Origin: Thermoplasmata archaeon
GTDB taxonomy: Archaea; Thermoplasmatota; E2; DHVEG-1
NCBI GenBank assembly: GCA_030637965.1
Contig: DAOWFO010000019.1
Span: 1 to 30,753, forward strand
Reading direction: 5' to 3'
DNA: 30,753 nt
Shown: positions 3,525 through 10,147 of the stretch, piece by piece
How positions within the stretch are numbered: the stretch's first letter is position 1
How the letters are laid out: the number at the start of each line of letters is the position of its first letter
The notes under the pieces: generated by a model
What the model was told of the DNA's origin: nothing
The model's input: the letters and a program-made list of their open reading frames with translations, nothing else
Database searches by the model: none
Program-made: the position numbers and the translations under genes

Positions 3525-4808
3525 ATGTCTTCCAAGCCTAAATTAAAGATTAAACTAAAAAAAATTGATGCAATAATTGTAGTTATTTTGTTAGTTATTG
3601 CTGGACTTGTATTAGTTAAGGCGGGATATGTAGCTCCTCTGCAGAAAGACATATCTGAGCCAACTCCAGATGATATAGAGGATATACCTCCACTTCCAAT
3701 ACCTACGCCACCAGAATCGATAACGATGGGGTACATGAGAGCTGTTTCTCCAGAGGATGAAGGAGTTCATTTTAACAAAATAAATATATGTAGGGAATGG
3801 TGGTATTTTAGCGCAGTTTTTGATGAAAGTAGCGATTTGAATGGATGGGTGGTGTCCATTAGCTTCAACCATATGGCGCGTAGTGATCTGCTTGGTACAT
3901 CAAAACCAGACCTTATGGTATTAACATTACATGGACCAAATGGCGAAGAATATGGAGGTATGATAAATAAGGAAAGAGGACTTGGGATAATCAAACAACC
4001 TACATTGAAAGCAAAAACCCCTGGAGTAAGTGTTAGATTCGAAGATTCATGGGCGGAAGGAGAATCACCTGAATGGCATGTTCATGCTGAAGATAATGAC
4101 ATTGACAAAAGCCACGATATCATTATTGATCTAGATTATTTCGCACCATTTGCTCCTGTGTGGACCGTTGGAGAAAGAGCTTTTCAAAAATCAAAAAGTA
4201 ATATCGCAAGCTACATGTTTACAGGATGCAATATAACCGGAACTGTCCAAATTGATGGAAAAGAATATACAGTGAAAGGAACAGGACATCATGAACATTC
4301 TTGGTCGCCAAAAATTGTAACAAGAGGATCAATCAATGGATGGGATTGGTCACATATAACATTAGATAATGGATGGAACTTATACTATTCAAATTATTAT
4401 CAAACTCCACAATATATATCATCCTTAACATCAAAAGTTAATCCTTTTGGATCATTAGTCATAACTACAGATAAAGGAAACTCTATTACTGTATTCAATA
4501 ATATAAACCCTGAAATAACAAAATCTGATGATGAATTATTCCCTTTTGTAAAAATGCCTACTGAAATTAATATAAATGCAGTAGCAGGGATTGAACAACC
4601 ATTATTATCCACCTATAATATTGAGCTTGATATTGAATTATCTGCTAGAAATACATGCGAAAAAGTATGGAAGTTTCCAACATATGTAGGAATGACTGTA
4701 GGAATGAATACCATAAGCGGTACAATATCATGGATAGACGATGAGGGAAACCATGAATTAGAATTGAACGGAGTGGGTGTAATTTGGAGTATGAGGGCAC
4801 TTTTATAG
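3525..4808 (+). CDS. Membrane-anchored AttH/CrtC-like (lipocalin-like, hydratase-fold) protein
   Basis: Basic N-terminus plus hydrophobic helix (IDAIIVVILLVIAGLVLV), Pro-rich linker, then EWWYF, GHHEHSW and GWDWSHITLDNG motifs typical of CrtC/AttH-like double beta-barrels. Confidence 0.65.
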   Translation: MSSKPKLKIKLKKIDAIIVVILLVIAGLVLVKAGYVAPLQKDISEPTPDDIEDIPPLPIPTPPESITMGYMRAVSPEDEGVHFNKINICREWWYFSAVFDESSDLNGWVVSISFNHMARSDLLGTSKPDLMVLTLHGPNGEEYGGMINKERGLGIIKQPTLKAKTPGVSVRFEDSWAEGESPEWHVHAEDNDIDKSHDIIIDLDYFAPFAPVWTVGERAFQKSKSNIASYMFTGCNITGTVQIDGKEYTVKGTGHHEHSWSPKIVTRGSINGWDWSHITLDNGWNLYYSNYYQTPQYISSLTSKVNPFGSLVITTDKGNSITVFNNINPEITKSDDELFPFVKMPTEININAVAGIEQPLLSTYNIELDIELSARNTCEKVWKFPTYVGMTVGMNTISGTISWIDDEGNHELELNGVGVIWSMRALL

Positions 4809-5726: not shown

Positions 5727-6110
5727 TTATTGTATAGTTACTAATGCCTTCTCAGCATCTAATAAAACGGTGTCTCCTTCTTTTATTTTTAATATATCAA
5801 TTTTATCTACACAAGGTATCCCTGCAAGTATGACACCGGTTGCAACAATCGTCTCAGTCTCTTCATTAATTATACCTCTTGGTGCTACACCATTTTTCTT
5901 AAGTCCATAGATTACATAAGAACCTACGGTTGAACCTTTTCCGCATGGAAAAACTAGAATTTTATCTTTAACACATCTTCCTTTAAGTGGATGCTCTTCT
6001 TCAATAACAATGCCAGTATTACTATCAATTCCACCATAGAAACCTATCGGTTCATTTGACACAATTGCAATTCCCTTTGCTCTTCCTGGATATATTGTTC
6101 TTCCTTTCAT
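5727..6110 (-). CDS. Phosphomevalonate dehydratase small subunit (AcnX swivel domain, DUF126)
   Basis: 127 aa; ILVFPCGKGSTVGS motif with putative catalytic Ser; ATGA overlap with the large subunit. Confidence 0.85.
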   Translation of the reverse strand: MKGRTIYPGRAKGIAIVSNEPIGFYGGIDSNTGIVIEEEHPLKGRCVKDKILVFPCGKGSTVGSYVIYGLKKNGVAPRGIINEETETIVATGVILAGIPCVDKIDILKIKEGDTVLLDAEKALVTIQ

Positions 6111-7291
6111 GCTTGCCCCTTTATAAGTTTATCAATATTCGAAAATACAACTTGCTGCTTACAAAATCCGGGCAAATAATTAGCGGCCTTACCAGAATTT
6201 ACCCCCGTTGTTTTATATCCCATCTTCTCAATAGGTGAAACAACCATACAAGTATCTGCTACAACATTACCTCCAGCCCTCTCAATTATTTCAGTAAAGC
6301 CCATTCTATCTGCAACCTCCTTCATAATCCTAGAGGTGCATACCCAAACAGGTTTTTTCAGTTTTTTATCTTTAAGTTTCTCAGAAATTACTGAAATCTC
6401 CTTAATAGATGCATGGGGACATCCAAGAATCACAATGTCTGGGTCTTTACCAGTATTTAATTTTTCATATGTTTCTTCTATTTCTTTTTTTCCGATATCG
6501 ATTGTTTCCAAACCATCTTTTTCTATCAAATCAGCTTCTGGGGTTAGTTCCTTAACATGATACAATGCAACAGCTCCAGAAGCAGCCATTGCAGCTCCGA
6601 GAGCTTTCAATTGATCAGTATTTGCATTTTTAATGCCGGTAAAGTATGGAATCTTGTTTTTTATCATTTTACCAACAAGATATCCTAATGCACTAAAATC
6701 CGAGTTGAAAATCATATCTACATCAATCCTTATTTTAATATTAGGTTGTCTTTTTTCCCAAATATGCAAACCGTAGTTTGGTGTTCTACCGCATATAGCA
6801 GCAGCAAGGGCAGAAGGGCCCCCCTCTCTATTAGTTCTTGCCCCAATAACTGAATTCGAAAACGAAACAGCAGAAGATTCTGACCAAGCAATATGTTCTC
6901 TAAACCTTGGAAGATTTCCAGCTAGATACGGCGTACAAGTAGACGTAACTACAATACCCATTTTCTTAAATGCATCCATAATACGAAGTTGGTTTTTTGC
7001 AAAATCTTTAGGGAATCCAAGTTTGTCCCAGTTTTCAAGATCCATGCCAGCAGGATTAAGATAAGTGAGGACTTGAACTTTGGCACCTTTTGAAGCCATA
7101 TCCTCTAAAAATTCAACTCCAGGATCACCGATTGATTTATAAGATACACCTGCAACTTGGACAGAACCAATAGGGATCATTCTGTCAGCACCATAAATAT
7201 CCCCGAGTCTTACAAGCAGTCTGAACATCCTTTCAAATATCTCACTTTTTTCCCCCTCTAGAATTTTTTCTTCTTCTTTAGTTAGATACAT
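6107..7291 (-). CDS. Phosphomevalonate dehydratase large subunit (aconitase X, DUF521)
   Basis: MYLTKEEEKIL start; Fe-S Cys motifs CTPY, GCPH, DTC; WSESSAV and TNREGG; in an operon with mvk and ubiD. Confidence 0.88.
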   Translation of the reverse strand: MYLTKEEEKILEGEKSEIFERMFRLLVRLGDIYGADRMIPIGSVQVAGVSYKSIGDPGVEFLEDMASKGAKVQVLTYLNPAGMDLENWDKLGFPKDFAKNQLRIMDAFKKMGIVVTSTCTPYLAGNLPRFREHIAWSESSAVSFSNSVIGARTNREGGPSALAAAICGRTPNYGLHIWEKRQPNIKIRIDVDMIFNSDFSALGYLVGKMIKNKIPYFTGIKNANTDQLKALGAAMAASGAVALYHVKELTPEADLIEKDGLETIDIGKKEIEETYEKLNTGKDPDIVILGCPHASIKEISVISEKLKDKKLKKPVWVCTSRIMKEVADRMGFTEIIERAGGNVVADTCMVVSPIEKMGYKTTGVNSGKAANYLPGFCKQQVVFSNIDKLIKGQA

Positions 7292-7599
7292 TCTATTAAA
7301 CTCCTACAATTTTCAACAATTTTATCAATATCTGCTTTAGATGCACTATCTATATGTATGCCACCAAGAGCAACTACTTTTGTGTTATATTTTTTACATG
7401 CTTCTTCTGCAATAGGTTTTAACACAATATAATCATAATGTCCTTCTAATCTTATAACATCTGTTTCTTTTTCAGGTTCACAAACAACAATACCACCAAG
7501 ATGCGATTTTTCTCCTCCACCTAAAATATAGATTCTATCAATACCAATTTCTATCTGTTTTAACCATACTTTGAATTTACCTTTACCCAAGGTAATCAT
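7282..7599 (-). CDS. LpdD-like prenylated-FMN chaperone (proteasome-assembly-chaperone-like fold)
   Basis: IG.D...GG..(S)HLG...GHYD...GGIHID.AS..DI matches the recalled LpdD pattern (IG.D..GG..PHIG...H.D...GIH). It overlaps both neighbours. Start could be 7599, 7605 or TTG 7608. Confidence 0.7.
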   Translation of the reverse strand: MITLGKGKFKVWLKQIEIGIDRIYILGGGEKSHLGGIVVCEPEKETDVIRLEGHYDYIVLKPIAEEACKKYNTKVVALGGIHIDSASKADIDKIVENCRSLIECI

Positions 7600-8893
7600 T
7601 GACATCAACTTTTTTATATTTTACAATTTCATATTTGTTTCTATCAATGTCAAATGGGAGGGTTGCATCAATACCTACTTTTGTTGTTAGAGTCTTCTTT
7701 CCTGACTCATGTTTGCCAGAAGGATCAAGAGAACTTCCAGGTTGATTGGGTTTTATTATAAGGTCTTTATTTCCTTGGAAACGTGTTGCTATGGCCCATT
7801 CAACAGCATTTGGACTGTAAATATCTACGTCTTGTTCAACAATTATCACATGTTTCATACTTTTATGACCTTTAAATGCTGCCTCAATTGCATTTTTTGG
7901 ATCATCTGGATTTTTCTTATCGATCTGGACAATCCCATGAAGCCATGATCCTCCACCCATAGTAACAAGGACATTCTTACAATCAACTACTTTGCTTACC
8001 TCATCGTAAATTGTTGGTTCTTTAGGCATACCCATCAGTAATTTATGTTCTAATCTGCCGGGAATCAATGCTTGATATATTGCGTTTTTTCTATGAGTAA
8101 TATGATCGATAATGAAAACTGGCTCCTGTCTTTCAAAATCTCTCGTTTCAGTAAGATCAACAAAAGGTCCTTCCCTATCAAGGTCTCTCGTTAGTCTACC
8201 TTCAAAAACAAATTCAGAATAAGCAGGGACTTCAAGATCTTTTGTTATACATTTTACCATAGGAGTTTCATCAAGTGCATTAGCAATACCAAATTCATCA
8301 ACACCTGAAGGTGGACCAAGAGATGCTCCAACCATAACTGCAACAGAATTACCAATACAGACTGCCATCTCGAGATCTCCATCAATCTTATCATACGTAG
8401 TGCGAGTTTGTCTATTTTTGATAAGACGTGCAGTAAATTTATTTTTATCAATTTCCATTATACGGTGATATGAGACATTTCTACCTGTTTCAGGATCCTT
8501 TATAGTTGAAACTGTGGCTGAACCATATCTACCACCATCACCTTTTAAATGATATAAAAGTGGGATTTTACTTAAATCAGGATCTTTAATGATTATTTCT
8601 TGACAAGGAGCCTTATCTACCATTTTAGGTTTCTTTGGATTTCGTAAAGCATCAACCAGTTTAAACAGAAGTTTTTCTTTAGTTGTGCCTAAACCTTCGG
8701 CAATAATGTCACGATTTGAAGTAATACCACCAAAAACAGGGAAATTGAATCCTTTCACATTATCAAAGATAACTGGTTTCTCAGATAGAGAATACATAAT
8801 ATTTGCGATTTCAAATTCATGGGATACTTCTTTTTTTATACGTACTAGTTTCTCTTCATGTTCAAGTTTATCAAGAAAACCACGAAGCATCAT
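7583..8893 (-). CDS. UbiD-family prFMN decarboxylase; probable trans-anhydromevalonate 5-phosphate decarboxylase
   Basis: 436 aa; SYHR, EGPFVD, DIY...VEWAIATR, SSLDPS, KVGIDAT motifs; ATGA overlap with mvk. Confidence 0.88.
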   Translation of the reverse strand: MMLRGFLDKLEHEEKLVRIKKEVSHEFEIANIMYSLSEKPVIFDNVKGFNFPVFGGITSNRDIIAEGLGTTKEKLLFKLVDALRNPKKPKMVDKAPCQEIIIKDPDLSKIPLLYHLKGDGGRYGSATVSTIKDPETGRNVSYHRIMEIDKNKFTARLIKNRQTRTTYDKIDGDLEMAVCIGNSVAVMVGASLGPPSGVDEFGIANALDETPMVKCITKDLEVPAYSEFVFEGRLTRDLDREGPFVDLTETRDFERQEPVFIIDHITHRKNAIYQALIPGRLEHKLLMGMPKEPTIYDEVSKVVDCKNVLVTMGGGSWLHGIVQIDKKNPDDPKNAIEAAFKGHKSMKHVIIVEQDVDIYSPNAVEWAIATRFQGNKDLIIKPNQPGSSLDPSGKHESGKKTLTTKVGIDATLPFDIDRNKYEIVKYKKVDVNDYLG

Positions 8894-9843
8894 CGATTAT
8901 ATCCGCTCCCGGATGCGCCAATAACAGTTTTTAATGTTTGAAATCCTTCTTTCTCAAAAGCATTTGCAACCTCTTCTTGTAGTCCTCTACCCGGTGTTAG
9001 TGCAATCATATTCCCCCCTAAACCTCCTCCGGTAAGTTTTGCTCCAAAAGCACCATGATCACGTGCAACACCAACAAGGAAATCAAGTTCTTTTGATGAT
9101 ACTTCAATCTGTTGTAAAAGTTTATGATTTTCATTCATTAATTTACCGACTTCTCTATAATCCTCTTCTTGAAAAGCTCTCTTTGCTAAATAAGCAATAT
9201 TTTCAGCTCTGTTAAAAATTTCTTTGTATTTATTAGAATTTTTCTCTTTTCTCCCTCTAACCCCTTCTACGGCAGCATTTGTATCAGTTACCTTTCCAGT
9301 ATTTCCCATTACGATTTCTACTTGTGAAGGCAAAGAAATTTTTTCTATAACATTTGGATTAGTTTTTTCAAACCATATAAGCCCACCAAAAGTAGATGCG
9401 GTATTATCTACACCAGATGGCGTGCCATGATATCCTTTTTCTCCCTCATATGCAATATCGTTAATCTCATCATCTGACAAATCAAGAGCATAGTATTCTG
9501 AAAGGGCTCTTACCAATGCCACACATGATGCAGCACTAGCACCTATTCCACTTGCAGCATAAAGATTACCACTTAATTCAATTGCCACACCATCTTTAGA
9601 AAAATCGATATTCATCTTCTCTATAATATTCTTAATTGAAACTTTTTGTTGTTCTAACTTATCCTCTTTATATCCTGGCGTAGCCAATCTATTGTCATCA
9701 AGTTTCAACTCAGGAATCTCAAAGGGTGACACCCTCGCAACAGTGTATTTTCCTATTGCTGATACAATAGCTGGAACACCATATACAACAAAGTGTTCAT
9801 TAAATAAAATTACTTTACCAAAACCTATGCCCTCGCCCTTCAT
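8890..9843 (-). CDS. mvk: Mevalonate kinase (GHMP family)
   Basis: GKVILFNEHFVVYG, SGIGASAA, HGTPSGVDN, GAKLTGGGLGG. Probable start ATG 9843. Confidence 0.88.
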   Translation of the reverse strand: MKGEGIGFGKVILFNEHFVVYGVPAIVSAIGKYTVARVSPFEIPELKLDDNRLATPGYKEDKLEQQKVSIKNIIEKMNIDFSKDGVAIELSGNLYAASGIGASAASCVALVRALSEYYALDLSDDEINDIAYEGEKGYHGTPSGVDNTASTFGGLIWFEKTNPNVIEKISLPSQVEIVMGNTGKVTDTNAAVEGVRGRKEKNSNKYKEIFNRAENIAYLAKRAFQEEDYREVGKLMNENHKLLQQIEVSSKELDFLVGVARDHGAFGAKLTGGGLGGNMIALTPGRGLQEEVANAFEKEGFQTLKTVIGASGSGYNR

Positions 9844-10147
9844 ATATATCACATATATTATTTTGTAATATTCTTCTCATATGTTCATTTTTTACTACGT
9901 AATATAGAAATCAGTATTTCTTTTTTATCATTAAAGTAAAGCTTAGGTGGGCAAGTATATATGCAAGATTATGAATATATTTTTCGATTTTTAACTACTC
10001 CGTTCACCCTAAAGAAATATTATCTTAAAATTAGATTGCAAATAAATTCTACTGATAGCCTTCCAAACTTATGTATTCAATATACTTTTTAATGAATATA
10101 AAGTTAAACGTTAAATTCTAAATATTTTAAAATTCATACATGTTCAG

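Follow-up and report, generated by a model that had tools for sequence, protein, structure and literature searches.

What role a small gene plays between the decarboxylase and the dehydratase of an archaeal mevalonate operon is the question raised by the locus described here. The archaeal mevalonate pathway, which is being engineered to make isoprenoids at a lower ATP cost, is described with mevalonate kinase (MVK), phosphomevalonate dehydratase (PMDh), anhydromevalonate phosphate decarboxylase (AMPD), the prFMN synthase UbiX and IPK (PMC12547664). The pathway genes given for M. mazei in a 2025 paper do not include LpdD, comprising MVK, PMDh, AMPD, prFMN synthase and IPK (PMC12547664), and this gene list bears out the view of the original prediction that the published archaeal scheme lacks LpdD. 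The paper on LpdD, for its part, mentions neither archaea nor mevalonate (PMC10865409), and a literature search made largely outside subscription journals found no publication linking LpdD to the archaeal mevalonate pathway. The original prediction had taken the small gene for an LpdD-like prFMN chaperone and a candidate additional component of the pathway.

The window, i.e. the whole stretch of 30,753 nucleotides analysed from a Thermoplasmata archaeon, carries five minus-strand genes with overlapping ends. The first gene of the operon encodes MVK (8890-9852), which has GHMP kinase domains and overlaps the start of the UbiD gene by 4 nt. It is followed by the gene of a UbiD-family decarboxylase (7583-8893; 436 aa; UbiD_N, UbiD and UbiD_C domains), which was assigned as AMPD by its operon context, and by the LpdD-like gene (7282-7599, stop included), whose product of 105 aa begins with MITLGKGKF. 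The last two genes encode the PMDh large subunit (PMDh-L, AcnX; 6107-7291; PF04412) and the PMDh small subunit (PMDh-S, AcnX swivel domain; 5727-6110; PF01989). The ATG of the LpdD-like gene lies within the last codons of UbiD, whose gene ends at 7583; an alternative TTG start at 7608 would lengthen the ORF, but the ATG is preferred because the homologues begin at ATG. Read from the sequence, the minus-strand overlap between the UbiD stop region and the LpdD-like start covers 17 nt (7583-7599), and that between the LpdD-like stop and the PMDh-L start covers 10 nt (7282-7291), with a GGAG about 9 nt upstream of the ATG at the PMDh-L start (7291). Hence, the gene of about 105 codons overlapping both ubiD and PMDh-L is present as it had been described. 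The 17-nt overlap suggests that the UbiD and LpdD-like genes may be translationally coupled.

The host genome comprises 867 kb in 87 contigs and is about 74% complete. A search of the whole genome found a single UbiD and a single PF21758 gene, the latter with the same result as in the window. A UbiX fragment lies at a contig end and adjoins the GGGP synthase gene (G000 contig C69:2-1129, L003), which places the cofactor synthase in a lipid-synthesis context, apart from the mevalonate operon. Elsewhere in the window, a 427-aa ORF on the plus strand (3525-4808) is hydrophobic over a stretch close to the N-terminus and matches no Pfam family at E <= 1e-4. The minus strand at 3-2252 carries the gene of citrate lyase alpha subunit (CitF) followed by a citrate synthase C-terminal-domain gene cut at the window end, and the two may form a citrate-cleavage pair.

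The LpdD-like protein matches PF21758 over residues 6-103 (E 9.5e-23), its score of 80.5 bits lying well above the cut-off, which is 27. The family is named PAC_bac in the Pfam copy used and LpdD_chaperone in the newer Pfam label that appears in precomputed annotations. No family besides PF21758 was found by a Pfam scan at E <= 0.01, and an NCBIfam scan at E <= 0.01, in which the VdcD model was included, returned 0 families. Homologues at E <= 0.001 number 341; the 120 of them that were listed are all of 104-107 aa and 64-90% identical. Because of the PF21758 match and these homologues, the gene is considered real and not a chance reading frame.

A broad protein search with phmmer gave 325 representative clusters at E <= 0.001, from which 97 were taken to build the family alignment and profile. 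Within this 97-member alignment H33, G35 and G80 are invariant, and G28, G29, H54 and H82 are at least 90% conserved; D56 is conserved to at least 90% within the operon subclade. The residues belong to the motifs GGGEKSHLGG (H33), GHYDY (H54, D56) and GGIHID (H82), the last with a conserved GIH at 80-82. The motifs H.D and GIHID had been named correctly in the original prediction, whereas its 'GG..HLG' was slightly off, as three residues separate GG from the histidine. When the profile was compared with the PDB, the sole match was LpdD of Lactobacillus plantarum (E 1.2e-19). The family profile was needed for this purpose, as a single-sequence phmmer search of the PDB left LpdD at E ~0.8 among unrelated noise matches. 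In LpdD, H35, H61 and D63 coordinate Mn2+, and the H35A exchange abolishes the binding of prFMNH2 (PMC10865409). On the profile alignment, these three ligands (PMC10865409 numbering) align with H33, H54 and D56 of the window protein, which are predicted to be its metal and cofactor-phosphate ligands.

The fold leads to the same family. An AlphaFold2 model of the LpdD-like protein, predicted on the alignment, has a mean pLDDT of 98 and a pTM of 0.89. The structural match to LpdD that had been expected from Foldseek was found, as LpdD chains occupy ranks 1-6 against the PDB (TM 0.81-0.88, rmsd 1.8-3.0 Å), the best superposition of the AlphaFold model reaching TM 0.88 at 1.8 Å. PAC3 and Pba3/4 rank after them with TM of about 0.55-0.59. 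Every test of membership in the LpdD family that was run, namely HMM, sequence relation, fold, metal ligands and association with UbiD/UbiX, pointed the same way. All this makes the 105-aa protein an LpdD-family member from an archaeon, and the homology first proposed is confirmed by PF21758, the profile match, the fold and the aligned ligands.

The window protein thus shares with LpdD of Lactiplantibacillus plantarum (lp_0272; PDB 8PO5, 8PZO, 8PZH, 8P4W) its PF21758 domain, its fold, the His-His-Asp ligands and the GIH motif, and its gene, like the LpdD family, is associated with UbiD/UbiX enzymes. There are also several differences between the two. The solved LpdD chains have 136-142 residues, whereas the window protein with its 105 aa lacks the C-terminal tail; its loop between the two histidine ligands is 5 residues shorter, as counted on the profile alignment, and its identity to LpdD is only about 16-17%. 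The low identity and the shorter loop were counted against a chaperone role. The putative client differs as well, being an aliphatic-substrate UbiD of archaeal core lipid biosynthesis and not an aromatic-acid decarboxylase. Moreover, the window gene is built into the operon of its client by overlapping frames. The gene lpdD, in contrast, shares a transcript with lpdB, a homologue of ubiX, and is located away from lpdC (PMC10865409).

The partner of the protein was judged from the gene neighbourhood. Among 401 sampled genomes of the phylum Thermoplasmatota, in all of which both families were counted, PF21758 occurs in 58 genomes and UbiD in 356. Within the window's own family, 52 of the 53 genomes sampled have the PF21758 gene, as do a few genomes from other families. 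The loci fetched numbered 30, of which 27 are from the window's family and 3 from other Thermoplasmatota families. UbiD lies directly upstream of the LpdD-like gene and overlaps it in all of them (30/30), and MVK stands upstream of UbiD in every locus whose flank extended far enough. PMDh-L is directly adjacent to the LpdD-like gene in 15/30 loci and within 1.5 kb of it in 23/30; in the remaining 7/30 it was not seen in the flank, with none within 1.5 kb. In one genus a TruD gene on the opposite strand separates the LpdD-like gene from PMDh-L while the UbiD-LpdD overlap is kept (L012:1806-3020, minus strand). In five sister loci (L008, L009, L017, L022, L025) the gap is likewise about 1.2 kb, the TruD gene itself having been scanned in L012. 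The invariance of UbiD as neighbour, set against the partial presence of PMDh-L, argues against a helper of PMDh, and this invariant coupling points to the UbiD decarboxylase as the probable partner. The placement beside AMPD is not a peculiarity of one genome, since it recurs through the window's family and is found in other archaeal lineages too.

The distribution of the gene is nevertheless narrow. As UbiD is found in 356/401 genomes and the LpdD-like gene in 58/401, AMPD activity in general is independent of the latter. Eight UbiD loci were fetched from genomes without PF21758, and seven of these UbiDs are 36-42% identical to that of the window and do not stand beside MVK or PMDh. In two LpdD-less genomes that were inspected, no small gene coupled to UbiD was found. 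A maximum-likelihood tree was built from 31 UbiDs, a small sample that was not random, and is unrooted. It groups 19 of the 21 LpdD-linked AMPDs from archaea in a single clade (support 100/98), which spans three Thermoplasmatota families and DPANN. Another clade (support 94/98) holds the seven LpdD-less UbiDs, and the other two LpdD-linked UbiDs, from unassigned metagenome contigs, fall outside both. The eighth LpdD-less UbiD comes from genome G015 and is placed within the LpdD-linked clade. Directly downstream of this UbiD, in the position of LpdD, G015 has a cysteine-rich ORF of 115 aa (L060:1681-2028, minus strand), which may be a replacement of LpdD or may be unrelated. The AMPD-LpdD pair may travel as a unit, although the tree offers this as a lead and not as proof. 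Rather than a universal pathway enzyme, the LpdD-like protein is a lineage-restricted accessory of one AMPD clade. The proposal of an additional pathway component is supported, with the limit that the component would not be a general one.

Lineages other than Thermoplasmatota also carry the arrangement. A scan for related loci with the single protein gave close relatives in Thermoplasmatota only. A Diapherotrites MAG has the gene order MVK-UbiX-UbiD-LpdD-AcnX-AcnX swivel-IPK. Similarly, two unassigned metagenome contigs show UbiX-UbiD-LpdD-AcnX-AcnX swivel without MVK, followed in one of them by IPK. In the DPANN phylum of this MAG, PF21758 occurs in 5/31 genomes, and in four of these five the gene is beside an AMPD-like UbiD that is 63-69% identical to that of the window. 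The DPANN AMPDs (L034, L043-L046) nest among Thermoplasmatota sequences in the UbiD tree, which suggests that the AMPD-LpdD(-PMDh) module may have been horizontally transferred between Thermoplasmatota and DPANN.

The wider family is likewise associated with the same enzymes, as distant PF21758 members are beside UbiD and/or UbiX in three of the four contigs examined. In the fourth (L038:2319-2702), the gene immediately upstream of the member encodes an aldehyde:ferredoxin oxidoreductase, and the 6.3-kb contig holds no UbiD or UbiX. A metagenome protein of 298 aa (P0150) has a class II aldolase domain fused to a C-terminal PF21758 domain. This fusion hints that some members of the family may serve something else than UbiD. 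The PF21758 model also matches the control genome of Methanosarcina acetivorans above the cut-off, which is of importance because the reconstruction of the M. mazei pathway in E. coli did without a gene of this kind.

The LpdD-like protein is a member of the LpdD family with the LpdD fold and ligand residues and with a gene coupled to that of AMPD, and it is probably, with a likelihood of roughly 0.7, a chaperone that would bind prFMNH2, contact AMPD and affect its activity by loading it with the cofactor. UbiX would make the reduced prenylated FMN (prFMNH2), which the LpdD-like protein would take up. Its His-His-Asp metal site would contact the phosphate of the cofactor and so hold prFMNH2, as the authors of the LpdD paper propose for LpdD. 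The protein would then pass prFMNH2 to the apo-AMPD, with which it is probably co-translated, and the loaded AMPD would convert trans-anhydromevalonate 5-phosphate to isopentenyl phosphate for the synthesis of lipid precursors. This role is modelled on LpdD, whose binding is limited to reduced prFMN; LpdD also activates the UbiD of E. coli, which pulls it down (PMC10865409). Several aspects besides the sequence differences were counted against the chaperone. Earlier work cited in the LpdD paper found little or no role of LpdD in native gallate decarboxylation, and the mode of prFMNH2 binding could not be determined in that paper (PMC10865409). Likewise, E. coli can run the M. mazei pathway on a set of genes that lacks an LpdD (PMC12547664). 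A complex prediction of AMPD with the LpdD-like protein scored 0.00, a value that counts neither for nor against binding.

A bolder form of this idea holds that the separate AMPD clade is defined by an obligate two-protein AMPD-LpdD module. These AMPDs would be unable to load or mature prFMN alone under anoxic conditions and would depend on the LpdD-like partner translated with them, which might be a stable subunit. The module would have passed as a whole between Thermoplasmatota and DPANN. It is offered tentatively and considered rather unlikely.

Among the rival explanations, which are taken in falling likelihood, the first would make the protein a small subunit bound stably and stoichiometrically to the AMPDs of this clade, with a structural or regulatory role, and not a transient carrier. 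Precedents are VdcD and BsdD, small proteins that are also encoded beside a UbiD-family enzyme, VdcD being required for the activity of VdcCD; these are integral subunits, whereas LpdD is a cofactor-binding protein (PMC10865409). The overlapping and probably translationally coupled genes in all 30 loci would suit a subunit, the distinctness of the LpdD-linked AMPD clade could reflect co-adaptation, and E. coli UbiD does pull down LpdD in vitro (PMC10865409). However, the window protein has no sequence relation to VdcD, as judged from the NCBIfam scan, the characterised member of its family works via the binding of reduced cofactor, and G015 lacks the gene although its UbiD is nested in the linked clade. 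A small subunit is hence considered unlikely. Less likely still is a maturase that would aid the anoxic oxidation of prFMNH2 to the active iminium form, a task of the PhdC kind. PhdC, too, is a small accessory whose gene accompanies a UbiD/UbiX pair. Its co-expression activates E. coli UbiD (PMC13040415), as does that of LpdD; the conserved metal site of the LpdD-like protein would also be compatible with such a task. PhdC, however, belongs to another family and is catalytic, oxidising a prFMN radical (PMC13040415), whereas the window protein matches PF21758 only and reduced prFMN species are the only ones that LpdD binds, so that a maturase is quite improbable.

Last and highly improbable, both of them poorly supported, are a helper delivering Fe-S clusters to PMDh, which was the fallback of the original prediction, and a proteasome-assembly chaperone of the PAC3/Pba3-4 type merely placed in the operon: the former could draw on the overlap with the PMDh-L start in the window and on Cys40, Cys69, Cys98 and Cys104, which are common in the operon subclade, but was rejected since none of the four is invariant, the consensus of the wider family has no cysteine, PMDh adjacency is partial and a TruD gene intervenes in one genus, and the latter could draw on the general alpha/beta sandwich of PAC3 and Pba3-Pba4 (PDB 2Z5B, 2Z5E, 6JPT), a likeness earlier noted for LpdD (PMC10865409), but was rejected in view of the far stronger LpdD matches, the want of a detectable sequence relation in the Pfam scan, a His-His-Asp site specific to the LpdD family and the lack of proteasome genes in the loci.

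The LpdD-like protein is thus probably a cofactor-loading helper that is missing from the published pathway scheme and is carried by some archaeal lineages only. Activating UbiD enzymes with their oxygen-sensitive cofactor is known to be a hurdle in practice (PMC10865409). If true, a dedicated LpdD-type helper tied to one AMPD clade would be a simple part to try for raising AMPD activity in heterologous hosts and would offer a natural client for the study of the mechanism of LpdD proteins. The core chemistry of the pathway would be unchanged by it, and most sampled archaea manage without the gene; the helper would add an accessory to the scheme of the archaeal mevalonate pathway.
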